64,000 bases of DNA from Psammoneis japonica (GCA_008632985.1 QPGO01000003.1:620001-684000), one strand, 5' to 3'; shown: positions 15,421 to 51,717, counted from the stretch's first letter. Notes: generated by a model from the sequence alone, not told the origin. Program-made: numbers and translations.

Positions 15421-17660
15421 CAACAAGTGGTATAGGATTATGTTATGGACGAGAGAACTGGTACCTTTTTATTCCAGTAAATTTTCTGAACAAGTTCGCT
15501 TCCAGAACAACTCATGGGTTCGGGAGTGCGATGAGGATAGCACAGGGTCCACGATGCCTCCGTTCTGACGATATCTGTTTTTACTCCAGTGACCTTTCCC
15601 GATCAAGATGACTTCCGGAACAAATCGTGGGTACGGAGTGCGATAAAAAGCCTGTGATAGTGTTAGGACTTTAACTCTGTACTTAGTTTAATTGTGAGCT
15701 TCTGTTGATTTATCACTACAAACATGTCAGAAGAAAAACTGACTTGATCCAGGCATGGATCGCTTTGAGACCCGTCGCAGTCGTGGAAATTAGGGTGTAA
15801 TTCGGGATGTAATTTGGGGGTGTAAAAACGCGCATCGCGCAAATTTACACCCCAAAGTTACACCCGATTTTCGCACGAGTACGAGAGGGTGAAATTCGAT
15901 GTCTGTAATTCTGCGAGAAATGATGAGTTCATTGAATATATACTCCTGAAAAAATGTTGATAACTAAACAGGAATAACTCTATATCTCTAATGTTAATCA
16001 ACTTACAATGGCGTTCGGCGGCTCCGTTGCGACCTAAAGCATGCCAAATCATTGTTCTGACAAGTCTAGTCCATTAACAGTAACGTGAATAACATTATAT
16101 GTTACTATTGTATCCATAGGCAAGGTATCAACTACCATATGACGTGTTTTTCTTCTGAAATGGCATGAACTTGCCTTCTCATCGTTTTTCTTTTCGTAAG
16201 TGCCCGTAATTTTTCATACGAAAACAGACTCATCATCGTCCATGACGGCAAGATGTTTGTTGCCGTCATGGACGATGAGTTACAGGCAAAAATTAAACAC
16301 GACTGCGATGGGTCTGAATCTGTGACAAGCTGCCTCTGTATTCAGGATTTGAGTTCACCGGAACAGGACTGGGAGATGTAGGCACGGCTTGCTTCAGAAA
16401 GAGGTCGAGCGTCGGCCTGTCAAACGTGTTGCTCTTGTTTGAGCAAATAATCAACACCAGCTTGTTGCGGTCTGTGTGGACATGTCAGCAAAGCCATGCC
16501 AAACAGAATAGGTGGTAACAGCACCGTTTCGAACACGTCTCACTTTCCAAGGAAGTCGTCCACTTCGTTCGTTTGCAATCAACAGAATATGCATACCTTA
16601 GCGCAGGTCTTGTCATACGTCAGAGCTTCTTGAACTGGTTGAAGCACATTGTCTGCCATGAATACCAGGTTCATCCGAATCAAGGACGCATTGGAAATCT
16701 CAATGTGGGGCTACTTGATCATCGACTATCCCGCTGTCGCAGAAACAAAATGAATCTTTTCTAGTTGATCCCTGGCTCCTGGGGTCCCGCCCAATCAAAA
16801 TGAATCTTTTCTATTTGATCTCTGGCTACTGGGGTCCTGCCCATGTCAAATGCTACCATGTCATCGTAGACCGTAGCATCTTCCACTGAAAACATGTAAG
16901 CGTGTCACAATTTTTAGAGTTTCTTTTATTTCATGTTGTGACGCAGCCATTCTTCGTCAAAAAGCCAAAGGCAGCTTTTGCAAGCTTACAAATGCTCGTC
17001 TTGGTGACTCCTCTCGACGAAATGTTCCACAGATGTCAATAAAGAGTTGCGCAACGTGCCGATTCTCATTGCCGCAACGGGTATTTTCTGGCATTTTTCC
17101 AAACAACTGAAGGAGACGATGACAAACACTTTTTCTTTGGAACCAAGATTTATGGGAGTAACACCAACATGAGTTTGCTGGATGAGTTTGCCAGCAATGG
17201 GAGGAAACAGCCCGCATCTCCACAGTGTGCACTTCAGAGACCTTTCTCAAACAAGATGGCTTCCAGAACGACTCATGGGCATCGGAGAGCAATGAGTAGA
17301 GCCCATGGTGGCAGGGCGCAGTTTCAGGTGTGACAATGGAAACAGCAGCACCTTTTTTCAAAAGATTTTAGACGTCAAAAGTGTTTTTGGCTTTCCTTCT
17401 CTTTTTTTGTGAAAAATGTCTAACTTAGGCGCATTTTCACTTAAATGAGCTTGTCATCTTTTTTTTTTGCAGCACCTCGCTCTGCCCTCTTCATTTTCAG
17501 CTGTGAGGGTTGAAGTGTGCTGCTCTTTTTTCGCATGATTTTTACGCGTCGAAAGTGTTTTTGGCTTTCCTTCTTTTTTGCAAAATGTCCAACTTTAAAA
17601 AAATCATAGAGGTGGAACAGAAGTGAGATAGTGAGACCGAAGACTGGTTTGGCACATTTT

Positions 17661-17978
17661 CAGCAAATGATCTCATCATTGTCATTTTTTGCAGTGCTGT
17701 TGCAAACAATGAGTCAGAGTTCCACAAAATGTTGGACAAGCCCGACAACAAGAACAAACCTTTGTCTCCAGCAGTCTGACATCAATTTTGCTGTGTCTTG
17801 TTGGAGGGAGACATTGACTCAGCAAATGATCTCATCATTGTCATTTTTTGCAGTGTTGTTGCAAACAATGAGTCAGAGTTCCACAAAATGTTGAACAAGC
17901 CCGACAACAAGAACAAACCTTTGTCTCCAGCAGTCTGACATCACTTTTGCCGTGTCTTGCAGGAGGGAGACATTGACT
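17661..17978. repeat. Tandem duplication, 159 bp x2
   Basis: cagcaaatgatctcatcattg...gagggagacattgact at 17661-17819 and 17820-17978. Confidence 0.9.
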
Positions 17979-18596
17979 GCTTTCTCATGGGTCTTTTCAA
18001 TGGAGAGGCTTTCTGACGTTTAAGTTGCTGTCAACACACAAAAAACAAAAGAAAAACCTTGCTTCCAAGGGAGTCTTGCACGAAAGACTGGCTGGTTTCA
18101 TGTTTGCATGTGCCGGAACAAAAACAAACCATTTGCCACTCACAGCAGCAAGGTGGGCAGGCCAGCAGGGAAAAGAGGGGGGGGGGGGTGTTCACTCAGC
18201 AGGACTTGCAGGTGTGAAACAGGGAGCCTGGATGACATGACAAGAAGGACGTGGAAAGAAGTGTCGTTTTCATGCAAAATTGACACCGAATCTTGCATGG
18301 AAGTGCCAATCTGAGCAGCAAATGGAGGTCAAGTGAAGGTGATGGTTTGTCCAAATGAACACTCGCAAGCACCACAGCAGGGGCAGAACTTTCACCACAT
18401 GAGGTGAAGGACTTGAGCAGCCAGTGTGGGAGAAAAATGGCGATGGTTTGTCCAAATGAACACTCGCAAGCACCACAGCAGAGGGGCAGAACTTTCACCA
18501 CATGAGGTGAAGAATTTGAGCAGCCAGTGTGGGAGAAAAAGAAACAGTTGTGGGCTGACGGGCATGGATGGAAGTTGTTGGCTTCGAAGACGTTGT

Positions 18597-19666
18597 GATC
18601 ATCGGCGGGTGTTTCTTGAGTGCGCAGAATTTGCGCCAAATTCCTGTGCACTGCAGAAAATGCACCAAATGTGCAAAAAATCACCGAATGAGACAACAAG
18701 CGTGTGAGCCATGAGGCGTCGACGCCAGTCGTTTTCCACTGAATTTTGTTGTCCACAATGCTGAAAAAGGGTGCACCAGTGGGGCAGAAGTGGCCAAAAG
18801 GGTGTTGGGGGGGGGCCAGCAAAATGCTGTCTGAAAAGGGCGACATTGGGTGAGAGCACGCACAGAAACACACGCAGGGGCTGCAGGTGGGTGGCTGACA
18901 TCAGGAAGCAAGTTGCTGCCAACACAACAGTGGCCAGAGAGGATGCTTCACATGATGGCATCTGTTGGATGAGGAGAACGGCTTTGCCAATGATTCTTCC
19001 TCTGTTCATTTGAACAGGGAGGACACACCAACCGCAACCAACTTCAAAGCCCAGGAGTCAAAGTCATCTTCCCAGCGGATCTCACGGCACCTTGGAAAAA
19101 AGAGTTGAGCCAGCATTGGATGAGTCTGCCAAAGATCATCGGTGGGTGCTTCTGAAGTGTGCAGAATTTGCGCCAGATCCTGTGCAGAAAATGCACCGAA
19201 GCTGCAAAAAAATCACCGAGTGAGACAACAAGCATGCGAGCCATGAGGTGTCCATGACCAGCAGTTTTCCGCTGAAAGTTGTTGTGCGTCATGCTGAAAC
19301 AAGGGTGCACCAATGGCAGAAGTGGCCAAAAGGGTGTCGGGGGACTGGGGGACCCAGTGAAATGCCATCTGAAAAGGGCGACATGAGCAGGAGAGCACGC
19401 ACAGAAACACAGGCAGGAACTGCTGGTGGGTGGCTGACGTCGGGAAGCAAGTTGCTGCCAACACAGCAGTGGCCAGAGAGGATGCTTCATGTCTGTTGGA
19501 TGAGGACAATGGCTTTGCCAAAGACTCTTCCTCTGTTCATTTGAGCAGGGAGGACATGCCAGCCGCAACCAACTTCAAAGCCCAGGAGTCAAAGTCATCT
19601 TCCCAGCGGATCTCCTGGCACCCATTGGAAAAAAGAGTTGAACTGGCAGTGGATGAGTCTGCCAAA
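18597..19666. repeat. Diverged tandem duplication of about 535 bp x2 in a TpA-depleted block
   Basis: gatcatcgg...ggatgagtctgccaaag at 18597-19133 and 19134-19666. A 97-bp tandem pair lies just upstream at about 18340-18540. Confidence 0.85.
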
Positions 19667-22600
19667 GCAGAGGATGCAACGATGTTGGCTGTGGAGCCTG
19701 CTGCTGCTGGGGATGAAATGTTGATCTTGGATGAGCCCACTTCAATGTCTTTGTCCAGCTTGTGTTTGAACTGCATGTGGTTGTTGTGCAGTGCTGTGCT
19801 TCAATGGAAATGGGGCTCATCCAAGTCATCTTCCCAGTGAAGATTTCATCCTTGACAAAGCAGAAAATGCAATGATGGCAGCTGTGGAGCCTGCTGCTGC
19901 TGGGAACAAAGTGGTGCTCTTCGACGAGACCACTTCAATGTCTTCGTCCAACTTGTGTTTGAGCTGCACGTGTTTGTTGTGTGGTGCTGTGCTTCAATGG
20001 AAACGGGGCTCCAAGTCATCTTCCAAGTGGGGATTTCATCCTTGACAACTCGTTTCCGATGAAAGATGCCAGTTTTTGCCAGCTTCATTCAGAAGCCCAA
20101 CAAAAACTGGAGGGAAAATGCAACCCATGTTCTTCAAGAGCAGTGACCAGTGCTGAAAAAAATTTCAGTTTTGACTCTGTTCCAGTTCAAGCATCACACA
20201 TGGATCAATGAAGGGAGCTCTGACATGCAAGTGCTTTGCCTCTGGAGTGAATGAACCTGCAAAATGTTTGTGGATGCTGTGTTTCACCTGCTTTCTTTGA
20301 CAATTCATTTCAGCATTCCCACACAGTCAGCTCCTGAAACATTTTTTTCCGGCTTTCATTGTCACAACAATTTCACAGCACTGCTTTTTCATCGCAATTT
20401 TGCAAGAAGCAAACAGATGCTCATCGAGTGCAAAGGGACACATGTGGGCAACCCTGACGCCATTGACAATTCTTGAATCAAAGCCTTTGTTTCTTTTTGA
20501 AGATGCACAAAAGCAAGCTTTGATGACAAACAAAATTGGAGCCAGATGAGTGTCTTTGCAATGCAGAAAATGTTCAGATTGCATTGTGTTCTTCAGTGTT
20601 GGCATTGTGGGATGAGGTGCAGGATGCACCCCAGTGGGCGCATCTGCAGTGACAGCTGTGGAGCCTGCTGGTGCTGCTGGAGAATGTCTTGGTGTCGTGG
20701 AAGAAAGAGATGAACTAGCGCACTGGATGAGTCTTCTGAAGTAGAGGACACAACAATGGCTGCTGCATGAGAGTGTGCTCATTGCTTTGAAAGCAATCCA
20801 GAGAGTGCAGCAGCAACCTTTGGCAGCACAGCAAACAGCTTCACTGGCTCAGCATTGGCACAGCCTGTTGTTGCTGTTTTCAGCAGTTGCCAGTGCAATG
20901 GGTGCTGTGGCACAAAACTTCATGATTGGTTGCAGGGTTGTGCTGATGCCCCCAACAAGAAAATGTGCAGTGCAATGGAATCGGCACCTTCTGCAATGAA
21001 AGCTCCGCTGGCTTTGGTGGCAAAACTGGCACTTGATGCAACGAAACAGCAACACCAGCCTTCTGCTGGTGTCAACCCAAAACCTCTTGACCTGATTTTG
21101 GTTGAAAATGAAAGGCAACTGGTTTTGAGCATCGCTGCATCCATGCTCAAGTCTTAGATGTGTGCTGTCCAAGCTGTGTGAGGTGTTTTGCAGGTGAAGA
21201 CATTGTTTTGTGCACCAGATGAATTGTGGCAATTGTGCATGAATCTTTTGCGATCAACCACAACAACACAGCTGACGGCCAAAAGTGCACGACATGTCTG
21301 ATGGGCACAAGTGCAGCCATGTGGAGGGAGAGAGTGATGCGTGTCAGATGGATGGAGGTCTTGTGAATTTTTGCAAACATGCATCACACCTCAAGGCAAA
21401 GAGTCATGACACAAAGACTTTCAGCGTGTGCACATCATCACATGTGGATGCTGCAATGGGCACATGCATCACCAAGTCAGGTTTGTTAACATTGTGTCTG
21501 TTTTTTTTAAGTGTGCATTGATGATTGAGAAATTGCACTTCAGCACGTGTCATGTTTGCTCTGTGGAAGTTGTTGTTTGCAAGAACCCATTGACCACCAC
21601 AGAATGCTGTGTCAAGAAAGCTCCGAGCTGCTTCACCAGCAAGACTGCAGTGAGCTTTGGGTGTCATTCCCTCTGTTTCAACTGTTTTCATCAGGCATCT
21701 CCCAAGGTGCTGGTGTTGCTGGGCAATGGTGCAACAGCACTTCAAATTGGTTTTTTTTTTTTTGTTGAATGAAAGGCAATTGGCCTCTCCTTGCCTGTGA
21801 TGGAGGTGCCATGAGTGATGTTTGCAGAAAGGGTTGTGCCTTAAGACTGATTGCTGATTGCTTGGGACTCAATTCCCACTGCACTCAATGACACACAAAT
21901 CATCCTCATCCCGCACCTTTTGTTGCTGAAGCAGAGATCCACCCTCATCAACATGTCAGCCAGGAGCAAGATTGCTTTCTGTTCCAATCACTTTTGGAGA
22001 AGCAACCAGACAACTGAGCAGCAACATGGTCACCATTGCAAAGAAAATGAGCTCTCCTCACACGCAATCAACTGCAAAATTGTGTGACAAAAACATCACT
22101 GCATGTGGTTTTAGACCAAATGAGAAAGTTCTGGCACTTGGGTTTGCAAACATTTTGCATGTTGACAATGACAAGTCATGCAAAAAGGACTTGGGAGAGA
22201 TGGTGGATGAGAGCACAAAGAGGGTCCATTTCCAACAAAACTGCTGCAGCATCCTTCATTTTGCTCACCTGTGACATGCAGTCATTAGCTCTTGTGGAAA
22301 AAAGAGAGTGATTGCATGGCTCAACATTGTTTCTCAATGGGTGGATCATTGGAAATGGCTGGGCCACTTTCTCATGGAACAATGCACCATTTTCAACATT
22401 TGGGACACTGCATTTTCCCACGGAACTTGTCTTGCTTTGTTGTGCTCCCCAGATGGTGAGATTCTTTGCAGGAATCATGATGATTTGTTCATGTTGTTTG
22501 CACAGAGAAGCAACTTTTTCACCCTTTTCTGTCCATCCTGAAAAGTTGGGTGAATCGGGGGGGGGGGGGGGGTCATTGTCATCTTCTTGTCAATCAGGCA

Positions 22601-23799
22601 CGGAGGCAACCACTGCAGTGGGAAAAATGGATGAATTTGCAGCCAGAGCAACAGCTGGCAAGTGGGGAGCAGCCAACAAAAAAAATGAACCCATTTTGCA
22701 TGCCATTGGATGAAGCAGGTGTTGCTGTGCACCAAAAGCCAGACACACCAGTCAAGGAGAAGGCACTGTGTTCAAGAGTTGCACCCAAAGCATTTGATTT
22801 GGAGCAATCATTTCCACCAGAAATGTGGTGACATGAATGCAGAAAATCTTCTTGAAGATCTCCAATGAGTCCTTGGAGTTGTCACAATCACAAACAACAG
22901 ATTTGAAATGGTCAGCCCAGCTCCATTGATGTCACACAAATCACCAAGAGAACAGCTTCACTTGTCACCCATGCATCTGAAATGTTCTTAGATTTCTCAT
23001 TCAATGCAATGTACCTGCCTCTGTTGTGATGCAGCAGATGTTGGAGCATTTGAAAGTGGCTCTCCAAGCATGGACGTTTGGTGTTGAAGTGTCGCATTGT
23101 GCTGAGAAGCCAGTTGCAAGATGTGCCATTTGCAGCATGATGTCATTGATGACTGATGGACAATTCTTTGACCTCCACTTTTGAAATGATCCTTGGGTTT
23201 CTGTTGTGACAAAAGGAAGCATCATCACCAAGTTTTGGGTGTGGACTGCCGACTTTGATGCAGTGGTTCATGACCCGACTCTGTCACACACAGCATTTTT
23301 TGGAGTCTGCATGGACCTCGCCAATTTGGGGAGATGTTGAATGCACACAACAATGAGATTCACCCAAGACAATGAAGTGCTTGTTTTCACCCATGGAGGA
23401 AGCAGAATCCAATGTAGTGCAGCCCAACATGTCGTCAGAAGTGATCATGAACAAATGGCTGCATTCAGTTTTTTCACAAATGGAAAAGAAGCTCCCACAC
23501 AAGAAGTGAAGGGAGGTTTTGGAGTGGTGTGTTTCAAGTTGTGCAAGAGTGCTTTAGATGCAAGATTGAACAAGTTTGTGCCAACATCCTCATTGATGAA
23601 GGTGAAGACATGACACTCATCTGGGAGCTCCCAGGCATTGCAGCCTTTGTTTTCAAAATGTTGCCAGAGATTGCAATCCAAGAGACAGTTGGATGGGATT
23701 TGAAAATGTGCCAAGAGAAGATTTTGAACTTTGCGTTGGAAGGCTGACTGTTTTCACAGCTGCCATGGAAGAACAAGGAAGATTGTCCACAAAGTGTTG

Positions 23800-24220
23800 C
23801 TCACTGGTAGACAGCTGGAGCCAGTGGGACATGGAATGAACCATCTGCACAAGGACACATGTGCCGGATTTCACAAGTGGTTAAACTGCTGCACCAAGCT
23901 GCATGGGATGCACAGATTCAGCGCAAACTGCTGAAACAGTTTAGGAGTGGTAAAGAGACTCTCAAAAACATCAGCAAAATCAACGAAAGAGCAGCCAGGC
24001 ATGGTCAACAGCTTCCAGAAAACACCAAATGTGCAACCATGTGCAAAGACAGAGACTCTGTCAACATGGCTTTGTTTGAAGAGAGAGCTGGGAAGTTGCA
24101 CTGGAGGGATGGAGGAATCTTGGACTCTGACTTTGGAGTGAGTGTTGCTCAGTTGGCAGACAACAAGTTGAAGCTGAAAGCTGACAAGCTTTGTGAGGTG
24201 TGCAAAGCAAGGGCTCTGGA
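23800..24220 (+). pseudogene. Decayed PIF1-family helicase fragment (Helitron-like relic)
   Basis: Across a frameshift it reads G-RQLEPVG...WLNCCTKLHGMHRF...LLKQFRSG...INER...KCATMCKDRDSVNMALFEE, resembling PIF1 motifs III-IV. Expected Tyr positions read His or Cys. Confidence 0.55.
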
Positions 24221-24869
24221 GCTGCAAAGAGCAACAGCTGCCAGCACACCCTGCAAAGAAGGGCTGCTGGGGTTGTGGTTGCTTGTGCCCAACAATCTTT
24301 CAAGCCATGCCATTGAAGTTTCTGGTCTTGCACCAATGACTGTGCTGACCATGCAACTGGCCTTCTTCTGCATCCCAACCAAGGAAGGCTTGGGAGGGCA
24401 CATTTAAGGATGAGCCAATCGAGACAAAAGGAGGTTGCACCTGTGTCTTGATGATGACAAAAATCTCACGCTTGTTTGAAGTGGCAAAGTTGCTGGCAAA
24501 AATGCACAACTTCATGGTGCAAAATGCCAAGCATGCTGAAGGAGCAAAAAGGCAAAGAGCCAGGCCAGCAAAGGACCTTGGCTGCTCAAATTTCTGCTGC
24601 TTGCTGGGGGAACAAGGGATTGTTTGGGGGTTTGCAGCTGTGCAGCACACCCACACTTTCAAGAACTGGTGGGACAGACAAATCCATGCTGCTGTTTGGA
24701 TCAAGGATTTTCCTGTTGGGAGCAGGGCAAAGCTGCAGACAGCTTGAGGGGGTGGGCAGTGCACATGAGAGAGGGTCTCTCATGACCCTGATTTCATGGA
24801 GAAGCAGCCGTGCATGGAGGAGCACTCATGTGAGCTCATGCATGACCTGCTCATTCCTTCTTGTTGCAA

Positions 24870-25285
24870 TTTTCCCTGAGTCCTGGGTTCAAGACACTGC
24901 CACAATTCTTTGGGGCAAAATGGCAAGAAATCTGGGGTGCACGGGGGGCGAGATGGGCAACATGGTGACATGAAAGTGCGGCGCACAAGTTTTTGGTGGG
25001 TCGCTGTGTTTCCCAGAGTCCTGGGTTCAAGACGCTGCTGTGGGCAATCTTCAGGGCAAAAAAGCAAGAAATGTGGGGCACATCAGGTGTGTCAGGGAGC
25101 AAGATGGGCAACCTGGTGATGCAAAAGTGCAGCGCCAGTCTTCCGCGGGGGCACTGTGTTCCCCAAAGCCCCGGGTTTGAGGTTTGAGGCACTGCTCCTG
25201 TGGACAATCTTTGGGGCAAAAGAGCAAGAAATGTGGGGTCCATCGGGGGTGAGATGGGCAGCACAGTGGTGCAAAAGTGCAGCTC
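24870..25285. repeat. Tandem repeat of about 140-150 bp x3
   Basis: The motifs gagtcctgggttcaagac, gggcaaaa..gcaagaaat and agatgggca recur three times. Confidence 0.8.
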
Positions 25286-25741
25286 GAGCTGTGCAGCTCG
25301 AGTTTTCCACAGGCTGCTGCAGCATCATGCAGCAGCACAGGACAGCAGTCAGCAGCAGCGACACAGAGCCCAGTGGCTGTTGCTCTGGGCTGGAGCTTCA
25401 TCGCACTGGCTCTGCCAGATTCTCCCCTGTGGAAAACACACTCATGATCACTTTCACAATGGAATGAAATGGCATGAAAAGTCATTGTGATCACATCATG
25501 CTGTGTCAACTGGTGTGACGACAGACGAGTCGATGTGGTCGGTTCATTCATTTCATTCATTCATTCACGTCACAGAACTAAAAGGTGTGGAACTTTTTTA
25601 TTTTTGAGATTGCGTCGCGTCCCGCGTTCATCCATTCTTGCTTCAAGTCCATGGCAACCGCAAACTCACACTCGTGCTCGCATCGTGCTGCTTGTGACTG
25701 TTTGTCAACACATCTTTCTTGTTGTAGAACTGCTTTCCCCC

Positions 25742-34300: not shown

Positions 34301-34758
34301 TGCGCTGCCTTTCCTCATAAACAAAATGTCACGCAGCTCTTTACAATGACAATTGTCTGATTGGCATGTTGTTTCATGTCACTCACAGACCTGCAGTTTT
34401 TGAAACAGTGGCATTTGCTCATTTGAAGCGAAAAATGAAGTGCTCAGAGACCTCGCACGTGCTTTCATCGTGAAAAAATTCGAGCTATTTGTCTTTATAA
34501 ATTAATTTACGACTCGCGAATTTGCGTCTGTTATCAGAGGTCGGAGGTTACGAGAGATATTACGTAGAAATATACTACCTACTCATTACGTAGATTTCTA
34601 CGTAATATAAAATTATCCTCATGTATGAAAGCCTCTATACATAGTACACGTACACCCCACCTTCGAACCTCACTCATTCACTCATTGCTGCAAGCTGGCT
34701 GTTTCTTTTCGGGAATTAGGGTAGACTATTACATGTGTGCATTTTATGAAGACTTATC

Positions 34759-38533: not shown

Positions 38534-38980
38534 TGCAGCATGCATGCAGACAAAAGGTTGTTTTTGTCACGCCCTTTGTGACATTTAAAGGCTGCAACAC
38601 GTCGCCGTGACACATTGGCTCTCATTGGCAGCTGTGTGTTGCACTCCTCCCCATGTGTCACGCGTCCATGCGGCTCTTTACTGACGTGTGCTGACACTGC
38701 ACGGTTTTGGCGGAACAGTGTGGGCACGTGCGAAGGAACGTGCAGAACTGCACAGAGTTTTGCGCGTTCGACAGTGATCAACGTTGCTGCAAACAACTCC
38801 CACTCAGGGTTTCGAACCCCTGGCCTCCTGCCTGATGGTTACGATGAACCACTCCGCTGTGAATTCACAACGCAGCATGCATGCAGACAAAAGGTTGTTT
38901 TTGTCACGCCCTTTGTGACATTCAAAGGCTGCAACACGTCGCCGTGATGCGTTGACTCTCATTGGCAGCTGTGTGTTGCA
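38534..38980 (-). mobile_element. TRIM (miniature non-autonomous LTR element): 110-bp LTRs at 38534-38643 and 38871-38980, 4-bp TSD CATG
   Basis: Direct repeats with 6 mismatches and TG...CA ends on one copy. The PPT catggggaggag on the minus strand abuts the 3' LTR. CATG flanks at 38530-38533 and 38981-38984. Confidence 0.85.
38795..38866 (-). ncRNA. tRNA-like (Pol III A/B box) cassette inside the TRIM
   Basis: Minus strand reads cagcggagtgg (A box, TAGC>CAGC) and ggttcgaaacc (B box) at tRNA spacing. The cloverleaf is imperfect. Confidence 0.55.
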
Positions 38981-40566: not shown

Positions 40567-41266
40567 CTACACTGCGCCCAGTTTGTTCACTTTTTCCATC
40601 ATCTCGGCTGCCGCTTTGGGTGCGGACTGTGCAAAAATGTCGGGAGCCGCAGACGATCCGCAAACCTCTTGATTGATGGAATCGGCACCATGAATGCTGG
40701 ATGTGGAAGGAGCCGCCCCAACAATGGGCATGTCGGAAAAGCAACAACAAAGCAACGACGACAGCCCCTTGTCACCAATGGAACCACCGACCGAACCGGC
40801 CTGCAGACCACCACACTTGCCGATGGAAAATCCCGCATCCATGCCAACCTGCATTTTTCTAGTGCCTTCTGTCATTTGCAAGAGCGCTGCTTCATTCAAG
40901 GCAATGACAACCTGCTTGTGCTTGCATCCAATCACACCAATCTGAAAGGACGTCATTTCGCAAAACATGGGAGCAGACCAAGAGCCGTCCTCTTGATTTT
41001 GCTTGACAATGACGCCTCTGCCGCCTGCGAGAGAAACAGATCAAAGATGTGATGACAGTGCGTTTTAAACAATCAGCAAGAGTCTCCCACATTGCTGTGC
41101 AATTGCGTTCAAAACAAAACACACTGCACTCACCACTCCCAGTGAGAACAAGGCCAATGTCTGTCACAGCAATGAGGGCAACTCCAGCGCACTTTTGAAA
41201 CACGGACGGGTCAATCTTGTCACACCGATCCACCGCACTGATGGCATTCTCAATGTGCGACTCCAT
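40567..41266 (-). pseudogene. SYLF/Ysc84 (DUF500) domain gene, exons 41266-41134 and 41024-40567; frame intact but TpA-stripped
   Basis: The spliced product reads IDPSVFQKCAGVALI...LTGSGGRGVIVKQ..DGSWSAP...INQEVCG. Intron GTGAGT..GCAG at 41133-41025. No Tyr in about 196 aa. Confidence 0.65.
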
Positions 41267-43918
41267 CGTTGCTTGTTGTTGTCATTGTTGTCATCGTGGG
41301 CTGGATTTTTGCTCGCGTGTGAAGCACATTGTTGTTGCTTTTATTTTGAATTTTGTGTCGCAAAATGTTCCCGGAAATTTCGAAACGCGTGAAGAATCGG
41401 ACGGATTCGACAGACAGGCAGACAGACACTTTGTCTGCATCTGTCTAATCTTCTTGCTGGACGACGCAACATGTCCCAAATCAAATCTGATTTTCAATTT
41501 GGGCAGATCACTGGTGTGCCGCAAAAGCACCATCGTTCTTGTTGGCTTGTTTTCATGCTTGCACGCTGCTTGACTGCGATGACAAGAGCATTTTTGCCTT
41601 CACAATGAGTGCTGCTGCTGCTGCTTTTGCAAAGAAAAGAGAGCCCTGTTGCAGAGACAAATTGTGAGTGCTTCTTCTTCTTCTTCTTCTTCCAATTGGT
41701 GTTGCACACTCCACTCATGCATTCTTGTGTTCTGTCAGAGTTGCAAACTTGACACTTGCCATGGCCGCTGCAGCTGTCTTGCCAAGAAAGGAAATTCACA
41801 CAGTGGCTCTGACAGCTGCAGAGCCGCTTGTTCTTCAAAGGTTGCAGCAGCTTGGTGTCACCATGATGACAGTCATGGGGAAAATTGAGTGCACATGACA
41901 AGGGAAAGGTCATCAACAATGTGCAAGCTGTTGCTCAATGTGGCGCACAGACCAAAATCTTTGTCCCTGCAAAGTTCTTTCAAAAGGATTTCTTCTTGAC
42001 AAATTTGCAAAGGGGCTGCAGAACAAACACACACAGGTGTCCATGATGTCATGCAAATGTTTGCAGGCTGCCTCTTGACATTGGTGTTTCTAAATAAAAA
42101 CACATGAAGTTGGGCAAGATTTCAGCAACCAGCCAAAAACAATCAGGAGTTGGCAGATGAGATGGGCTTGCAGTGCGGCATGCACAAAATTCTTGACTGC
42201 AGCAAAGGAAGCCTGAGCCCAGCAAAGAAAGATGCTTGTGAGTGCTTTCTCAGGAGCAATGGCCAAACATGCATCCTGTTGAGATGCCAATCTCAAGGAA
42301 CCAGCTGCAAAGCCATTGCCACCAAAGTCCATTCTCAGAAATGAGCCTCAAGAGATGCCTTTCCTTTTCATCTAACTTGGCAACAACAACAGTGCCTGGA
42401 TGCCACATGCATCCACATTTGTTTGAGACGCTGTTGTGGTGCTGAAATTGAGTCAGGAATGGACACCTGAGGTGTTGGACAGAATGACTGATGGCAGGTG
42501 TAACAATGCTCTAGAAAATGTGGGTCATGAGGCACTCAGCAATGATGCTGACCCCACAAACCATGGGGGTGATTGTTGAACAGAGAAGGTCTTTTTGTGT
42601 GCAGCATTTCACCACTCTCAGTGCAAATGCTTGTTTGAGCACTGCATTGCTCACATGTTTTTCTGTTCACAAGTGTGTGCTCAATTGTTTTCTTTCATGA
42701 GCACTGTTTTTGCATGTGTTTTTGGTGGACCTCAAGAATTGCACATTTGACACAAAAGTCCACATTCAACAAGCCCATCTGCAGTGCATTTTTCCTGTGG
42801 CTGAAATGTTGTCAGGCACACAAGCCAGCCACAACAAGAATGGTGCTTCATGTTGCACCAGCAACAAAGCCCTCTTGTGATCAAATCAGTTGCTGCAATT
42901 GTGCCAATGTTTTTCTTGTTGCCACAAGGTGACAAAAATTGTTGAGCCATCATGGGCACTTGACATTTCATGGTGCACGTGGGATGAAAAAACAATGCAC
43001 AACTCTCGTCCCCCACTCTCACCCTTTCCAGCTCTGACAAAGATCAAGATTTGGTGCCCAGAAGGGCAGCTAAAAAGCCCACGCATGTGTTTGTTGCATT
43101 CTGAGTGGCTCAATGCTGTCGCATCCGTTGCTCTTTGACACAGCTGACACTTGGCATGCCACATGATGGGCCTCTCTGCAAGTCCACGTTGTGCAATTCT
43201 AAAACACACGCGTGGCACCTGGCATCACGTCCAGCACGTGCTGAATGTGTTTTGGGCCCATTTTTCATTGGCTCGACTTGACAACAGAGCCATGTGGTCT
43301 GATCCCACCATGGCATCCCTGATGTGCAGCTTGCAAATGTTGGACAAGTGATGAACAAACTTCTCCTGACTCTTTTGATGGAAACCTTTCTACCACCCAT
43401 GGTGCCCACCTGTTGTTTGGCACAGTGCAGCATGCCTCGCTGCTGGACAACACGGCGAGACCGTGCATGAGCCTCTTGTGCGTGGCAACGCAGCATTGTC
43501 AACACGTGCCTGGGAAGCACGACCACAGGAGGGCGTGGCTCCAGGTCTCAGGCAATTCCAGAAGGATGCTAAGAGAGCATCCGTGTGAAGCACACTGGCC
43601 CGTCGTCTGGCCCACGATGGTGGCGTGATTCCACACGATGACATCACTCGTGCATGGCACGTGATGGCTTGATTCGCACGATCCACAATGCGAACGCACG
43701 ATCAATTTGGTGCGATCCAAATGCGAACGAACAGGGATTTGGCAAGATCCCCCATTTGCACGATCCCATTTTCTCTGCTCTAAACTAGCTCACAATTTTC
43801 ACAACGACAAAGTCGCAACACATCTTCTTTTTCAGCGCCTGGCACATGCACAGGGCACAGCAATGTTGCTCCCGCATGTTGTGCGAGGCAACAAAATCTG
43901 CAGAAACGAAACTACGAA

Positions 43919-44995
43919 ATGTTGGCAGGACCGACAAATCTTAAAACGACCATGAAGAAGCGGGTTGAGCCACCGATTCTGTTCGCACGGCCAGAGAAGA
44001 AAGAGCTGCAGCAGGGCGAGCACCAGACGTTCAAGCCACGTAACAACCCTGCTGATCCGGACAGTCCAACGCACAAGATGGGCATCCCGCACCTTTCTGC
44101 GGCTGCATGTGAGACACTCCCAATCTTTCTGCGCAACGTGGATCGCGTGCACGAAGGACAAAACATCACGACCGGGCCAGCGAAATTTGCCCTCATGCGT
44201 GACCTGCTGCAGGGTGATGCTCTGACGTCATTTGATGATGCCGCTGACAAGCAGGCATCCCAAACCAACGCTGCGTGCGCAGCATGCGTCGCGAAGCTAA
44301 AGGAAAGCATCTTCCCACATGGGGCGGCACCACTGCAGAAGCGCCATCTGCGGCGCTTCATGCGCAAGCCCGCAGAGGTTTCTGCTCGTGACTGCGCCGC
44401 GAGGGCTGTTGAAATTAACGGCCACATCTCTCAGTTTCCACCCGTGACGGAGGATGGAGAAACACCGGCGCCACTGCCCAATGACGAACCATGCGACATG
44501 TTTGAGTGCGGTGTGCCGAACGCATGGCAGAAGTTCATGACGCTACAGAATTTTGACCCATTGGTGCATGCTGTCGCCGAATTTGCACAGTTCTGCGAGC
44601 GCATCGAGCAGGTCGAGCTCGCCGAAGGTAACCAGGACCAACATGCCAAGGTTCCACACAAGCGGGGACGTAGAACGGACAATCCTGAGTCGTTGATCAC
44701 GACCCAACGGAACACCCAGAAGTCGTGCATGCTGCACGGGATTGACTGTGGACATCATGCGGAGGATTGTCGTCAGCTCAAGCACCACGTGAAACATGCC
44801 AAGACTGGACATTCCAATGACGGAGGCGGCAAGCCTGGTGCAAAACCTTGGAATGAGGAAGACATCAATGCTCTCATCGGATCGAAGGTCGAGGAGTTCT
44901 TTGCCAATGCTCAGAAAAAGCGCAAGGCCCGCGAGGAGGAGCTCAATCACTTCCGCGACCTCAACTTAAGTGATTCCGAAGATTCGGATGCCTGA
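43919..44995 (+). CDS. gag: Retrotransposon Gag-like protein (hypermutated)
   Basis: ORF directly after the 5' LTR with LQKRHLRRFMRKP and a zinc knuckle CMLHG..CGHHAEDC. No Tyr in 358 aa. Confidence 0.8.
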   Translation: MLAGPTNLKTTMKKRVEPPILFARPEKKELQQGEHQTFKPRNNPADPDSPTHKMGIPHLSAAACETLPIFLRNVDRVHEGQNITTGPAKFALMRDLLQGDALTSFDDAADKQASQTNAACAACVAKLKESIFPHGAAPLQKRHLRRFMRKPAEVSARDCAARAVEINGHISQFPPVTEDGETPAPLPNDEPCDMFECGVPNAWQKFMTLQNFDPLVHAVAEFAQFCERIEQVELAEGNQDQHAKVPHKRGRRTDNPESLITTQRNTQKSCMLHGIDCGHHAEDCRQLKHHVKHAKTGHSNDGGGKPGAKPWNEEDINALIGSKVEEFFANAQKKRKAREEELNHFRDLNLSDSEDSDA

Positions 44996-45099
44996 GAAGG
45001 GGGCCGACACGATGCAGGCAGTTTCAATGCATTGGATGAATGTGTGAATGAACAACTGAATTGCCATCGTACACGTGTTGCAGGCCAATCCCGCAAATG

Positions 45100-45625
45100 A
45101 GTTAAAAAGACTCATCTCACTCCAATCTTGTTTGTGGCTGTGAACACTGAACATGGCAAGGGCAAGACTCAAACCATTGAGGCACTGCCAGACAGTGGCG
45201 CCAGCAGCACTCTGCTCGACAGTCGACACTGCAAACGTCTGTGAAGCCATTCAACGGCTGAGACAAACTGGGCTGCGGCAGCAGGCTCGTTTGGCACATC
45301 TGACGACTGCACCGTTAAATTTCGGTTGCCAGAATTGTCCGAAACTGCAGAACTCAAGCATGCCGTCCACGCACACAACGGAAAGTTGGGCAAGTGCGAT
45401 GTGATTGTTGGACGTGACATTCTGGAGACACAAGGCATTGACGCTGTCTTCTCTGAACAGATGACAGAGTGGCCATTGGTCAATGGAGAAGCACCAATGA
45501 GGCACGCAGATGCCACGGTGGAAACCTCCTTCTATCTTCAAGATCCAGAAGCCTTGTCTTTGGAAACCGACCGGATTTCGCGCATTTTAGACGCCAAGCA
45601 CGCGCCGGCCTGCCTCGAAGACAAA
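45100..45625 (+). pseudogene. Retrotransposon aspartic protease remnant
   Basis: ALPDSGAS at about 45182 (from the LLDSGAS motif) and CDVIVGRDILETQGI. Ends near ILDAKH. Confidence 0.75.
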
Positions 45626-46420
45626 ACGCCGAACGCAGCGTTGTGGGAAGCTCCTCCCAAAAAGGCATCGACGAACCTGCGTCACGTGCGTTAAGTGATC
45701 CTGACGTTGTCAGTTGGGTTTGTCAACTGCTTCAGTTTGAACAATTTACTTCTCCTCACATTTGCTCTTCAGCATGTGTGGTCCATTAAAAACTGTTCAG
45801 CAGCCATCATTCGAATTCTCAATGACTGGCATTTGGTCAAAAATTTGAATTTTCGGTCGCCTCAATGGTGCACACAACCATCACACCAGCACAATGTTGT
45901 TTTGCGACGACGTTTTTCATGCCGCCGATGAAGCTGCCGAACCCCGCAAGTGTCGCTGTGTGGCATTTTTTCACCTGTCAAGCCATCTTCCCTGCACCGC
46001 GCGAACCCCAACCCTGGGCACAGCAAGGAAGGGGGGCATTCCCTGACCGAACCCTGCCCTGCACCATGTGAACCCTAACCCTGGGCAGTGCACCCTGGCT
46101 GGAACCCCAGCAGTTGGGAACAGGTGGCCCTGTCCCACCCAGGGAAGGGCGCGGCAGCGACGCCTTCGGTTGGGCAAACACTGGAAAGCTCTGAGCAAAA
46201 CACTTAGAACACGTGCAAAGCCATGGCAACCCCCAAGGGAGCAGAGGTGCTGATCACACCTTGAAGCCGCGAACCCAATGTAGAAGGCGACGTTCATGGT
46301 CCCGCGTCTGCAAGCACACCTGCTCGAGCCCGCGTGCGGCAGGACAGGACCTCTGGGCGCTGGCAAACCACCAGCACTCAGAATAAATTAGATGCTCTGA
46401 TTGGTCCCCAACGTGTCAGT

Positions 46421-46493
46421 GAAAAGGTGAGCTCAGTGGTGGAGCTTCGCCGATCGTAGGACGAGGCCGGGGGTTCGAGTCCCTCCCTTTTTC
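46421..46493 (+). ncRNA. tRNA-like (Pol III A/B box) cassette within the LTR element
   Basis: Acceptor-like stem GAAAAGG/CCTTTTT, D arm GCTC-AGTGGTG-GAGC and T arm GGGGG-TTCGAGT-CCCTC. The anticodon arm is irregular. Confidence 0.65.
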
Positions 46494-46579
46494 CGTGCAC
46501 ACGTGCTTGAACCGGCAACCCGGAAACGGGTTGAGGTCACTTGCTTGACGAAGTCGCCCCACCTACATTCGATAACCCC

Positions 46580-47384
46580 GATAAACATCGCAGAGATAAT
46601 TCCATGGGAGACTCTATGCATAGATGTGATGGGGCCATATAAAATTCAAAGACGCGGAAAGGACACCTTGCAATTATGGGCAGTCACAATGATTGACCCA
46701 GCAACCGGGTGGTTCGAGATTAAAGAAGTGTCTACGAAACGCGCAGACGTCGTAGCAAACGTCGTGGAACAAACGTGGCTATGCAGATATCCGTGGCCAA
46801 CCCAGGTAGTTTATGACCGTGGGACAGAATTTATGGCAGAATTTAGCCAGATGATTAAAAATGACTATGGGATTTTGAAGAAACCCATAAGTAAACGGAA
46901 TCCACAGGCAAATGCCATAGTGGAACGTGTACACCAGACACTTGGTAACATGGTACGTTCCTTTTCAGTACAGGATATGGAACTGGACGAAGATGACCCA
47001 TGGAGTGGCATCCTCTCCGCAGTAGCCTTCGCTATTAGAGCTACGGTACACACGACCACGCGTGCAAGTCCCATGCAATTGGTCTTCGGACGCGATGCGG
47101 TTTTATCTATTGCCTATCGTGCTAAGTGGAAGCACATAGAAACCAGAAAGCAGAAGCTTATCTACTTAAACAACAAGCGTGAAAATCAGAAACGCAAGGA
47201 GTGTCAATATACCGTAGGGCAATTGGTACTTATCAAACAGGAACAATCCTCTAAATACGGTTCTGACAGCTGTGCAGGACCCGCCAGAGTTGTCCGTGTA
47301 TATGACAACGGCACGTTGCGTGTCCAGAACGGAGCGCTGATAGATACGTACAATCTACGGCAGATTGTACCCTATCACCAGTAA
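46580..47384 (+). CDS. Retroviral-type (rve) integrase core and C-terminus, N-terminally truncated
   Basis: PWETLCIDVMGPY, VYDRGTEF and NPQANAIVERVH (DDE triad). The frame is open to a TAA just before the PPT. Confidence 0.9.
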
Positions 47385-48119
47385 GACATCCTGTCACTTA
47401 ACGGCCCTGATCATGGGGGAGTGTGCAGTATGCCTCGCTACTGGACAACACGGCGAGACCGTGCATAAGCCTCTTGTACGTGGCAACGTAGTATTGTTAA
47501 CACGTACCTGGGAAGCACGACCACAGGAGGGCGTGGCTCTAGGTCTTAGGCAATTCCAGAAGGATGCTAAGAGAGCATCCGTGTGAAGCACACTAGCCCG
47601 TCGTCTGGCCCACGATGGTGGCGTGATTCCACACGATGACATCACTCGTGAATGGCGCGTGATGGCTTGATTCGCACGATCCACAATGCGAACGCACGAT
47701 CGATTTAATACGATCCAAATGCGAACGAATAGGGATTTGGCAAGATCCCCTATTCGCACGATCCCATTTTCTCTACTCTAAACTAGCTCATAATTTTCAC
47801 AACGACAAAGTCGTAACACATCTTCTTTTTCAGCGCCCAGCACACACATGGGGCAACAGAGTTGCACCAAGACTGCCACGCGATTGAGCAAGTGCAATTG
47901 TGCCACCAAGGTGAATCGCAAGTGGTTGTGCAATTTGTCCCATTGTCCATTCTGGCACACAAACAGCACACTCGTGAAGCATCAAAAGGTGTGTTGCTCT
48001 TGTCTGGCAGAATGAAGCATGTGAGACCAGACATGAGCATGTGAAAGGCATGCTTGCAATGCACTCCAGCTCAATGACAACGAGATGAGCATCGACATGA
48101 CACAACAAGGAAATTCGTC

Positions 48120-48629
48120 ATGACCAAACACAGTCTCGTGGTGAGCCGCACTGCAGTGGGCACGGTTGTGGGACGCCGCGTCGCCCCGCTCTTCTTCCGC
48201 CATGTGCATGCTGTGTGCATCAAAAGTGCCGTTTTCAAACAACCAAAGACATGGTCTCCTTCCAAATTTGTTGAGTTGACTCCCAAGATGAAACACCTTA
48301 CAAAGTTGGAGAGCTTGATGCTGTGTGGATGCAGGAAGTTGGCATCAATTCCAAATGAAGTTCTTGAGCTGCCAAGTCTTCATTTTCTCTGCTTGCTTGA
48401 TTGCAAGTTGCTTGCAACCACAGCCAAGGACATTGGAAAAGCATCTTACTCTGTCAAAGATGTGTGGATGCCAGCGAAGACTCAAAGGCACAAAAGGAAG
48501 TGGATTGCTGCACAAAAACAAACAAAGCAGGAAGACATTTGCTGTGTCGCCATGACTCACCTGCAGCTCTTTGGCCACATGTCTTGGCAGGTCCGCACAG
48601 TGATGAGAATTTCATTTCATGTGTCTTGA
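48120..48629 (+). pseudogene. Leucine-rich-repeat gene fragment, TpA-depleted
   Basis: LTKLESLMLCGCRKLASIPNEVLELPSLHFLCLLDCKLL fits the LRR consensus. Confidence 0.55.
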
Positions 48630-48799
48630 CAAAAAATCCGGACTCAGTCAAAAGACAGGTGAAAACAAGGAATGAGATCATCCCACTGTCTCACCAGCAG
48701 CATGAGGCAGCTCTCAGGTGAGTGCAACTTGGCAGCTCTCAGGCAAATGTGCAAGTGTCAGGTCGCTGTCTGATTGTTGTCTGTCATTGGTCCTTGCTG

Positions 48800-51350
48800 C
48801 TAGATTGGATCCCATTGAGATTAGAGTGGAGCAATTCTGGTGCAACCGTGAAGACTGGCAAGCCACACATGAGTGAGGTAGAATCCAGTGATGCAATGAG
48901 CAAGGCAAGGAAGGAGAGATGCAACTGTGGCAACTGGCAAATGAACTCCATCACAAATGATGGAGAGCATGCTTGAAGATGACAAGACAATGGATGTTGC
49001 ACGCTGGTTGACTTGATGCTCTTTTGTTCCACCCAAACCAGATTGACCACCAACATCTGTGGGCAATGAACCACCACCACAAGCTGAAAAAGCAAGTCAA
49101 AGATCCAAGACAAGCAAACTTTTGAACAAGGTGTGCAGATCGAACAGAAGCCACTGGCACGATGGCCAAACATGAAGAAAAGATTGTTGGCCACTGCTGC
49201 AAACAGAGTTGAGCACACAGAAGAACAAAGCAGAGCAAGACCTGCTCTGCAATCAGTGGCTGCTCCAGGACCCTCAGGACAGGACCAAATGTTTTGAACA
49301 AAAAGAAGAATGAAAAAAGCTTTTGGCCAAGAGGGCATGTCCTGGCATGGTCAGATGTTTGAGGAAGGATCCAATGTTCCCTTCATGCAAGAACCACTTC
49401 TGTCTAACTTTGGCCACTTGGCAAACACCTCAGCAACAAACGCTGTGCCAGACAGCACCTGCCATTTGCCAGAGAGAGCAGATGAGCATGTGGAGAAATT
49501 TCCCCAACAGCTCCAATGGCCTGACCCCCCACACTGGAACTTCATTTAGATTGCACTGCAGAGGAACACATTGATGACTGGAGGAAAATGCAAGAATGTG
49601 CCTCAAGCAGCCCCTTTGGACCATCTTTTGCAGACTGCAAAGCTGGCTCAAAAAACTTGACAATGGCAGAATTTGACAAGACTCCTGCATGGTTGCAATG
49701 CCGGCAAAGCACAGATGTGCTCCAAAGCATTGGACAAAGATGATTGATGTTGTGACACCCAAGAAGACTGACTTGACACATGCGCCAAGAAGCTTCAGAC
49801 AACAGCCTGTTTGATGCAATGTTCAACCAGATGAACAAGCACTGTGAACAAGCACTGACAAATCAAGCTGAAATCTACAAGGCAACACCATGGGAGGTGT
49901 GCAAAAGCCACAAATGACACTGAGCAACACACTGCATCTTAAACAAGGTGTTAACCAGGGGGACATGTTTTGCCAGCTGCACAGACCAGGAGCAACCAAT
50001 GGTGCAGAGACTCAAGGTCATGCTGCAACAGAATTTTGCATGAGATTCTGCAGAGCAGCAGGGGAGGACATGGTCTTCATGATGACTGGAGCTCTTCAGA
50101 TGCAGGTTCAACATTGCATTTGAACAGCTCACAGAGAATCTGAAGACACATGCATGGCCATCAAGATTCCACCACACAAGGCATTTTTCAAGGTCACAGA
50201 GCAGCACCAGCATCTGGCTGCTTGTCAGCTCCCACACAACAAAATGCCTTGAGCTGAGAGACATGGCATTTGTGCAGAAATCTCTGTCTTACAAAAGGCC
50301 TTTCACTGCATGTGCCAGATTTTTGTTGATGACACAAATCTCCCATTCTTGTCTCAAGACAAGGCTGCAACCTGCAAAACAGTTGTGTCAAGTCCAGGCA
50401 AATGGTGGAAAGGACCCGCCTCCCCACACAGGCTTTTTCAGAATCTGATGACTGTGTGCACAAGTTGACAGGACAAGAATGAGTGCACTGCTCAAGACTG
50501 CCCTGCCAATGAAGCAAATGGAAGAAGTTCTGCCAACTGATGACCAGACAAGGCTGTTCTGGCAGAAGGAATCCGAGTGTGCAGCTGTCAGCATCATGGA
50601 TGGATCTTTCAAAGAACACATGGTGACAGCAGCACCAATGATGTTGGCACCATTGGAGGGACACTCTCACAGGTGCCAAGGTGTGAGTCAGACTCCAGGC
50701 TGACAACAAGACCAAAGTGCACACTGAGGTGAACTGGGGGGCATGAAGTTGCATTGGCAGCTGCTGCCAACAGGCCACTTTTGCTCAAAAGCATGGCTGA
50801 TGCTGGGAACCAGAGTGCTTTTTGTGGCCAAACAGATGACTTGTTGCTTGTGAAGTGCCAAACTAAACTCAACATGAGAAGCAAAGTGTTTTGTTGGCTT
50901 CTCCCAAGTGGACTTTGAAAATGACAATGTTGTCACCTCCAAGAGCACAAGCATGGGTCAACCAGCCATGTCAACAAGCTGAGTGGACCACAATTTCACA
51001 ATGCTGGACCATTTTCAATCAAAATTGGTTTTGTCATGGATCTCTGCATTTGGCCTCATTTTCCACTTCATGTGTGGCTTGGGATTTGTTTTCTGTGTGC
51101 TCTTTTTGAAGCAGCATTGGCTGTGATCCAAGCACCCATTGTGGTGAGTCCAAGTGTTTGTGTCACCATTGAATGGCTCCTTTCCAAGAGCAGCCTCAAG
51201 TGCATCTGTTGATTTTTCCCTGGTGCTGCTGCAGGGCACAAAATGTTTGTTTTGCAACAAGGTTGTTTGGGGCCCAAAAGGCACTTGAGCAGATGACAAA
51301 AAACAGGAACAAAACTTTCCTTCATTTTTGAGACCACACAACATGGTCTC
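48800..51350 (+). mobile_element. Heavily decayed non-LTR retrotransposon (LINE with RNase H) relic
   Basis: PFMQEPLLSNFGHLANT at about 49379, RNase H-like DGSFKEH..TAA at 50599 and DQSAH*GELGG at 50710. Many stops and frameshifts; boundaries are approximate. Confidence 0.6.
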
Positions 51351-51717
51351 TGTCTCTGACTGGAGCTAAAAACCAGTGCAGGGCTCCACCCAGCACCTCC
51401 TGCCCTTTTCCAGATGCTCTGGCACAACAAAGATCAAGAAGGTGCTTGGCACCCCCACCAGAAGGGCGCAGCTGAAACATGCGTGCATGTGTGCACAAAG
51501 AGACACAGATCTGTGGCATGCATTTTTTTGTATTCTGAGTGGCCCAATGCCATCGCATCCGTCGCTCTTTGACAAACAGCTGACACAGAGCCCATGATGG
51601 GATTGGGGCACGGCGGGATGGACCCGCCCGCCCTGCTGCTGGCACAGCATCGTCCGTCTGGCCATCTGCGAGAGCTGCTGCGCGATGCGCAACGCGCTCA
51701 CGGAGGCTCTCAAGCGC

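Follow-up and report, generated by a model that had tools for sequence, protein, structure and literature searches.

We examined a 64,000-nucleotide stretch of Psammoneis japonica DNA (GCA_008632985.1 QPGO01000003.1:620001-684000; hereafter the window, with positions counted from its first letter) and found five multi-kilobase blocks in which the dinucleotide TpA is almost absent and CpA and TpG are abundant (TpA deserts, D1 to D5; Table 1). The deserts are most probably DNA in which a locally confined, context-specific mutation process has run near completion, changing A:T to G:C at TpA, with a slower decay of CpG in addition. As judged from sequence comparison, the desert state is the result of mutation of TA to CA or TG on both strands and not a native composition, because three kinds of comparison agree: the two long terminal repeats (LTRs) of one retrotransposon, two gene relics at their conserved Tyr codons, and copies of the same repeats elsewhere in the genome. 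A mutator had been suggested in a preliminary description of this DNA, and the outgroup comparisons support it in the form of TpA to CpA/TpG plus slower CpG to TpG/CpA changes. The process acts on an LTR retrotransposon, a second repeat family, the relic of a cellular-type gene, and DNA whose read contigs have gene-like word depth.

Deserts and gene islands were compared by observed/expected (o/e) dinucleotide ratios in 1-kb windows and over whole blocks. The 1-kb windows of 17.6-25.6k, 28.6-32.0k, 32.8-34.0k, 36.6-43.0k and 47.8-51.7k gave TpA o/e of 0.00-0.09 and CpG o/e of 0.03-0.5. Over whole blocks, desert TpA o/e is 0.03-0.06 and CpG o/e 0.15-0.33, except at 43001-46350 (0.15 and 0.82, respectively), which also appears in 1-kb windows as a variant desert with TpA at 0.13-0.22 and CpG at 0.7-1.0. 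CpA and TpG are at 1.7-2.0 inside the deserts (1.86 and 1.72 in D1). The gene islands have CpG at 0.81-1.03 and CpA/TpG at 1.1-1.45, and their TpA o/e of 0.38-0.88 is not approached by the 0.03-0.15 of the deserts. Together the five blocks retain 93 TA in 26,251 bp, whereas the flanking islands, taken as the baseline, predict ~1,136. The longest TA-free run extends over 2,695 bp (18021-20716; probability ~1e-52 at the island rate of 0.0433 TA per position), followed by runs of 1,510 and 1,174 bp. GC content of the deserts (0.47-0.54) is not below that of the islands, and CA and TG are near-equal in number within every desert (2,955 and 2,898 in sum). Six-frame translation gave 0.06% Tyr in deserts versus 2.32% in islands, 6.6% versus 3.8% Cys and 5.2% versus 3.6% His, and the desert stop triplets consist of 65 TAA, 37 TAG and 1,085 TGA. 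The preliminary description had reported TpA-poor, CA/TG-rich blocks of several kilobases, filled with Cys/His-rich, Tyr-poor open reading frames (ORFs) in which TAA and TAG are scarce; sliding-window and block statistics confirm the blocks, and six-frame translation confirms the character of the ORFs.

The desert sequence was compared with contigs built from reads (run X1), which differ from the window at 0 positions over 36000-38556, 1 over 38956-41238 and 0 over 41224-43452. The word depth of these desert read contigs is 65-73, versus 57 for the contig over the MnmE gene. Where depths were summed over similar contigs in repeats, the sums were taken as a sign of many similar contigs, not of copy number. 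At 49180-51364 in D5, the window and the full-depth read contigs differ by 13 substitutions and several small indels, and 7 of the 13 substitutions are TA or CG versus CA or TG; these differences could reflect an assembly error, or strains or haplotypes that diverged while exposed to the same mutator. They are what one could cite for an artefact, i.e., a modified base at TpA that is systematically misread, or misassembly. We consider such an artefact very improbable: 7 kb of desert recur with 0-1 differences in the independently built X1 contigs, ancestral TA has become CA in some places and TG in others, unlike a systematic miscall, and the protein-level footprints described below are consistent with real substitutions.

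A Ty3/gypsy LTR retrotransposon lies across a desert border, with its 5' LTR in D4 and most of its 3' LTR in an unmutated island. Alignment of the LTR pair (43425-43872 versus 47423-47868) revealed 32 differences in 446 positions, of which 18 are sites where the island copy has TA and the desert copy CA (10) or TG (8). When only purines and pyrimidines are distinguished, the two LTRs match over 433 bp. At the far end of the 3' LTR, the final 60-70 bp carry mutations that arose separately from those of the 5' LTR: purine/pyrimidine identity is retained, and CA and TG alternate between the two. By itself the LTR pair gives no polarity, and a reverse process would leave the same differences if CpA to TpA changes, as in fungal repeat-induced point mutation (RIP), had enriched the islands in TpA, leaving the deserts as the unmutated state. 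This reversal is extremely unlikely. Conserved Tyr residues of the homologues appear as Cys or His in desert copies, the island integrase ORF (46431-47381) keeps a 317-codon open frame with 58-69% identity to its relatives, and TpA is ordinary in genes. In addition, a reverse process would have altered only the smaller part of the CA/TG, yet the loss of TA from the deserts is near-total (18 of 21 for the LTR).

The Tyr codons of the Pol protein were examined against 40 full-length homologues out of at least 120 listed. The homologues map to 45002-45637 on the desert side and 46356-47381 on the island side. In the desert part, 15 of 58 conserved columns are mismatched and 8 of the 15 are reversible by a single CA/TG to TA change; for example, a Tyr present in 39/40 homologues is Cys (TGC), and a Tyr present in 40/40 is His (CAC). 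The same codon test gave 4/46 for the island part. The gag-position ORF of the element (403 codons) has no family match, and reverse transcriptase (RT)/RNase H (homologue residues ~216-720) is absent, its place being taken by a stretch without Pol homology (Table 1). One read contig links 45648 to 46588 with 15 other letters between them, so that a form without the 939-bp stretch, in which protease is near-directly joined to integrase, exists in the same sample. Inside this filler, at ~46425-46497 (+), are motifs resembling the D-arm and T-arm of a tRNA; ARAGORN and Rfam searches of the window did not call this piece.

A second gene relic gave a similar result. The Ysc84-like relic in D4 contains 0 Tyr in 157 codons, and all three Tyr-rich columns of its 24 homologues read Cys (TGY). 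Other genomic copies of desert DNA, recovered as read contigs, hold TA at 44819 and 44837, where the desert copy of the retrotransposon has TG or CA. Over 38001-39334, where a second repeat family is located, other copies hold TA in place of TG/CA of the window in 7 of 8 listed differences, with such sites at 38670-38762. The opposite relation is seen outside the deserts, at 53411-55019, where the window keeps TA and the other contigs have TG/CA (11 of 11 listed sites). D1 contains tandem duplications whose copies differ by CA/TG alternations. Three pairs of desert paralogues carry 8, 6 and 14 such CA/TG double differences, and paralogues also differ as CG versus TG or CG versus CA, which is the prediction of independent resolution of ancestral TA or CG. 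A Pfam search of 215 stop-to-stop ORFs of at least 78 aa (17.4-52.0k minus the gene at 25.4-28.4k) revealed no viral or transposable element (TE) family in the deserts; the sole repeat/TE domain among these ORFs is the integrase, located in the island at 46351-47813. Hits to IZUMO, T7SS_signal and LRR in the deserts were sub-threshold and at chance level, and were rejected; the same search gave the lead to the Ysc84-like relic and otherwise returned known island genes. Self-comparison of the window in purine/pyrimidine space (34-mers) revealed no hidden repeats beyond those found by blastn.

The comparisons also indicate how the process operates. The desert LTR has lost 18 of 21 TA and 3 of 32 CpG (29 remain), with 11 other changes in 446 bp; the loss of TpA is far faster than the loss of CpG and background change. 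Because TpA loss outruns CpG loss, 43.0-46.35k and 40-41.5k are TA-poor yet CpG-rich. Both strands are used equally and without strand-coordinated runs: the 18 LTR events form 9 strand runs versus ~10 expected (hand count). Survival of TA per bp relative to islands depends on the flanking bases (R, purine; Y, pyrimidine), being 0.013 for RTAY, 0.049 for RTAR, 0.058 for YTAY, 0.267 for YTAR and 0.395 for TTAA (chi-square p ~1e-19); ATAT and ATAG have zero survivors in deserts, and the surviving TAs are mostly YTAR. This survivor bias points to a probable preference for T-A-pyrimidine. When TA and CG in the islands of the window were converted in silico, CpA/TpG o/e reached 1.81-1.84, compared with 1.83 in deserts, and the root mean square deviation of the dinucleotide profile fell from 0.35 to 0.10.

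The desert borders are step-like and sharp to within tens of bases. TA is spaced at 10-30 bp up to 36614 and then absent for 838 bp; at 32763 the same spacing gives way to 470 bp without TA. The borders are sharper than in the earlier description, which put the return to normal composition within 100-200 bp of genes. The third block had been drawn to 34.45k; it is desert to ~34000, and 33981-34486 has an intermediate TA density. At this right edge of D3, CpG recovers from ~33885, ahead of TpA (~34158). Since CpG returns 100-300 bp ahead of TpA at several borders, the TpA and CpG footprints are not exactly coextensive. The FG-GAP repeat protein gene has normal TpA from 163 bp upstream of its ATG to 281 bp past its stop codon. 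Both borders of the unmutated island at 46351-47813 fall within one LTR element, and the left border of D5 is ~70 bp inside the 3' LTR; because the borders cut through a retrotransposon, element edges do not set the desert borders. The deserts are not equivalent to all non-genic DNA either, since 12.6-17.6k and 51.7-55.1k keep normal TpA although no coding sequence is recognised there; 44 more ORFs from these unmutated non-genic flanks matched no Pfam family beyond PT repeats. Long read-built contigs in the deserts match the word depth of a gene and lack any 90%-similar partner, and one contiguous desert contains such gene-depth DNA, two repeat families and the cellular-type gene relic. The same repeat families are mutated or unmutated according to the location of the copy. 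The mixed content of deserts, borders inside an element and location-dependent state of the copies favour regions over single elements as the target of the mutator. This supports in part the earlier proposal that it works on whole chromatin domains, with the chromatin domain as a putative unit.

Several points weigh against the reading of the deserts as regions of near-complete TpA mutation. Most desert DNA has no outgroup, and its mutational origin rests on composition, local CA/TG alternations and the simulation. The simulation underpredicts GpC (1.07-1.14 versus 1.33) and overpredicts ApT and GpA; the desert profile therefore has another source as well, either the ancestral composition or an additional process. 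The LTR events agree weakly with the flank preference (C or T at +1 in 11/18), and that preference was derived by comparing survivors with islands, whose ancestral context may have been different. Public metagenome relatives of the element were found by scanning with Tyr-bearing peptides ([SA]LDLNMGY and TDH[KQ]NLTY), so that mutated relatives would be missed. Finally, the left edge of the island at 46351-47813 lies in or beside the rearranged stretch at 45649-46587, and gene conversion or recombination between old and young copies could explain it.

Two alternatives draw on these points. If foreign or repeat DNA had always been TA- and CG-poor, the deserts would simply show native composition; GpC enrichment above the conversion-only prediction and the lack of a recognisable relative for most desert DNA (215 ORFs, integrase excepted) are in line with this. 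Every available outgroup nevertheless contradicts it (LTR pair, codons of Pol and Ysc84, TA-bearing other copies), as do the CA/TG alternations in local duplicates and the 78 public relatives of the element, which have TpA o/e of 0.56-1.18. We therefore give native composition very little chance, and the composition of a single repeat family does not explain the deserts, since the outgroup comparisons show that TA has been replaced. The second alternative is that the mosaic arose from age and copy exchange rather than from domains: the mutator would strike particular insertions of foreign or mobile DNA soon after arrival, and unmutated patches such as 46351-47813 would be younger DNA or would have been restored by gene conversion, with unmutated members of an abundant family as donors. 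The retrotransposon is not a simple intact insertion, as it has no RT/RNase H, many similar contigs are potential donors, and the LTRs differ at 14/446 positions even without the mutator-type changes. Furthermore, the named targets of a comparable process in Bigelowiella natans are integrated viruses in the account of Mettrop et al. (2026; 10.64898/2026.01.13.699255). On the other side, the right border falls inside the LTR and not at the insertion edge (the 3' LTR end has been mutated independently), and the deserts include a cellular-type gene relic and gene-depth stretches between different repeat families. We regard age and copy exchange as possible but rather unlikely, and the regional mutation process as the better account of the deserts.

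Table 1. Coordinates of TpA deserts, islands, retrotransposon parts and genes in the window.
Feature	Coordinates	Strand	Remarks
Desert D1	17630-25579		18 TA in 7,950 bp; TpA o/e 0.03, CpG o/e 0.24
Desert D2	28593-31996		9 TA in 3,404 bp; CpG o/e 0.15
Desert D3	32763-~34000		5 TA in 1,238 bp
Desert D4	36614-46350		Block statistics
Desert D4a	36614-43000		20 TA in 6,387 bp
Desert D5	47814-51735		15 TA in 3,922 bp
5' LTR, mutated	43425-43886	+	3 TA vs 21 in 3' LTR
Mutated internal part of Ty3/gypsy element	43784-45637	+	Gag-position ORF, then N-terminal Pol (protease) 45002-45637
Stretch without Pol homology, in place of RT/RNase H	45649-46587		939 bp
Unmutated island inside Ty3/gypsy element	46351-47813	+	TpA o/e 0.88; integrase ORF and most of 3' LTR
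3' LTR	47423-47883	+	Mostly within island 46351-47813
Repeat-family copy inside D4a	38001-39334		Many similar contigs align there
Ysc84/DUF500-type gene relic	40570-41040	-	Homologues at E 2e-13
Island gene, FG-GAP repeat protein	25742-28312	+	856 aa, single ORF
Small unmutated island	31997-32762		TpA o/e 0.48; no family match
Thioredoxin-domain ORF	34759-35616	+	Island gene
Bromodomain/BET ORF	35737-36375	-	Island gene
C5 cytosine DNA methyltransferase ORF	58952-60472	-	506 aa; PF00145, E 1e-11

We propose that the agent would be an enzyme recruited to silenced chromatin, with TA becoming TG or CA according to which strand's A is changed. Genes and a few other patches would escape by lying outside the silent state. 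The outcome would be an irreversible inactivation of foreign or mobile DNA, because Tyr codons and TAA/TAG stops are erased. The leading candidate, as proposed for B. natans, is an enzyme of the ADAT/TadA lineage (tRNA-A34 deaminases) that would deaminate adenine in DNA. The invariant context of tRNA adenosine deaminases is U33-A34, which would fit the T-A requirement. CpG loss may result from deamination of 5-methylcytosine (5mC) in the same silent regions. Low CpG o/e (0.15-0.33), CG/TG and CG/CA differences between paralogues and a C5 methyltransferase gene all resemble 5mC-driven CpG decay, which cannot account for the loss of TpA and is far slower here. The methyltransferase ORF, ~7 kb beyond D5, resembles DNMT3 in its language-model features (score 0.91) and is at best 45% identical to its relatives; it indicates a predicted capacity for 5mC that would explain the CpG decay.

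From the sequence here, T to C on one strand is indistinguishable from A to G on the other, and the same signature could arise by other chemistry, without an adenine deaminase: T at TpA might be oxidised to 5-hydroxymethyl- or 5-formyluracil by a TET/JBP-type dioxygenase, or A might be modified (e.g., to N6-methyladenine), followed by mispairing. 5-Formyluracil can pair wrongly with G, and the hypermodified thymine of dinoflagellates and kinetoplastid telomeres occurs preferentially at TpA. TpA is self-reverse-complementary like CpG, and equal use of both strands fits a mark on double-stranded DNA. Mettrop et al. (2026), whose preprint is the only one on the process, prefer a deaminase on candidate-gene grounds alone. 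A modified-base origin is in our view unlikely, with a modest chance of being correct, and a deaminase is preferred as the putative enzyme.

A literature search for a TpA-erasing signature found only the B. natans preprint and nothing for diatoms. As described there, an integrated giant virus and a virophage mutate at ~6e-7 per site per generation in mutation-accumulation lines of B. natans, the mutations are almost all A to G or T to C, and all of these are on TpA; de novo rates of this type of process are about 1e-7 to 1e-6 per site per generation and episodic between lines; 124 genomic clusters of TpA-poor, CpA+TpG-rich windows are reported and an ADAT2-like DNA adenine deaminase is proposed, with ADAR being quoted as preferring U 5' of the edited A (Mettrop et al., 2026). 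When the cluster thresholds for 1-kb windows were taken from the same preprint, 26 of 64 windows passed them, forming clusters of 8, 6, 7 and 4 plus one single window. Our deserts resemble what is described for B. natans in the near-exclusive A to G/T to C changes at TpA, the presence of both products and the confinement to particular regions. Most of the affected ORFs resist annotation in both cases; TE domains are over-represented in the TpA-poor coding sequences of B. natans in that account, and an LTR element is affected here (Mettrop et al., 2026).

There are also differences between the two cases. B. natans is a chlorarachniophyte (Rhizaria), whereas the nearest named homologues in the window are from diatoms (Stramenopiles). 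The TpA o/e given for its hypermutable giant-virus region is 0.45, compared with the saturated 0.03-0.06 here, and its mutation was measured as an ongoing process, whereas ours is known from sequence footprints. The targets of the B. natans type are of foreign origin (integrated virus, virophage or transposon); those here include a Ty3/gypsy element and another repeat family as well as a cellular-type Ysc84 relic, and the remaining ORFs searched gave no viral or TE domain. The main text of the preprint makes no mention of CpG, methylation, flanking bases or retrotransposon LTRs, whereas CpG co-depletion, flank preference and borders inside a retrotransposon are found here (Mettrop et al., 2026). 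Thus the instance described here apparently belongs to a different major lineage, its kind being known from one very recent preprint. New with it are the saturation, the joint depletion of CpG, the preference for certain flanks, the mapped border positions, and a retrotransposon and a cellular-type gene as targets.

Two better-known classes of hypermutation were also considered. Fungal RIP resembles the present process in that dense context-specific transitions irreversibly wreck mobile DNA and leave skewed blocks beside normal genes. RIP, however, turns CpA into TpA and lowers GC, whereas the process here destroys TpA and makes CpA/TpG; repeat dependence is not evident here either, as long desert contigs are of gene depth and without a 90%-similar partner. 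ADAR and APOBEC share deaminase-type hypermutation directed against mobile or viral nucleic acid. Editing of retroelement RNA or cDNA marks one strand, whereas both strands are changed equally here, without runs; non-retroelement DNA is affected too, and only part of one inserted element. APOBEC gives C to T, not A to G. ADAR-type editing fixed through reverse transcription would give A to G on the sense strand of the retroelement over the whole new copy, and is at odds with the strand symmetry, part-element mutation and non-retroelement targets.

The ORFs of the islands are ordinary and intron-free. To the right of the deserts are MnmE, the C5 DNA methyltransferase and a GAF/HATPase protein. 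At least 120 relatives of MnmE were found at 47-64% identity, and all nine of those listed with an organism name are from diatoms; judged by this one gene, the host is most likely a diatom that has no close annotated relative. The 766-bp island at 31997-32762 contains a 65-codon ORF starting with ATG (32284-32481, +), followed by a 54-bp tandem repeat; the ORF may be a small gene escaping the mutator. An inverted repeat pair (51718-52117 and 54718-55123, 83-87% alike) encloses 2.6 kb at the right edge of D5; its arms have 17 TA each and are unmutated here, although the right arm is mutated in copies elsewhere in the genome. A 439-bp TA-free stretch at 57852-58291, with an internal 200-bp duplication (76% alike), falls in minus-strand ORFs without a family match and may be a small patch of the desert process or mere coding bias. 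In the left part of the window, 2146-12423 (+) is a single 3,425-codon ORF rich in Pro, Ser and Thr, for which Pfam finds only PT disordered repeats; in it a 264-bp unit recurs ~24 times in tandem (89% alike), together with repeats of 102 bp, and its GC content (0.58-0.60) is well above that of the remaining window. Just past this large repeat ORF, 12001-13500 carries a partial signature, with TpA o/e of 0.42-0.43, CpA/TpG of 1.44-1.49 and CpG of 0.61-0.79.

TpA deserts matter for genome annotation, because long Cys/His-rich ORFs that are spurious arise in them and similarity searches miss the transposons they contain; such transposons are recovered when sequences are compared in purine/pyrimidine space or Tyr is set against Cys/His columns. 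If the host is a diatom, the process also occurs in a major, genetically tractable group of phytoplankton, where it is saturated over tens of kilobases, and the question of the enzyme becomes testable through diatoms. Current adenine base editors rely on laboratory-evolved TadA, and a natural enzyme that changes A:T to G:C on double-stranded chromosomal DNA would be of direct biotechnological interest. We suggest tentatively, as a conjecture with somewhat less than an even chance, that diatoms and chlorarachniophytes share a chromatin-guided natural A:T to G:C DNA editor that erases TpA, preferably T-A-pyrimidine, in silenced DNA alongside cytosine methylation. If true, this editor would be an ancient genome defence of the SAR (Stramenopiles, Alveolata and Rhizaria) lineage that mirrors fungal RIP and does in nature what adenine base editors do in the laboratory.

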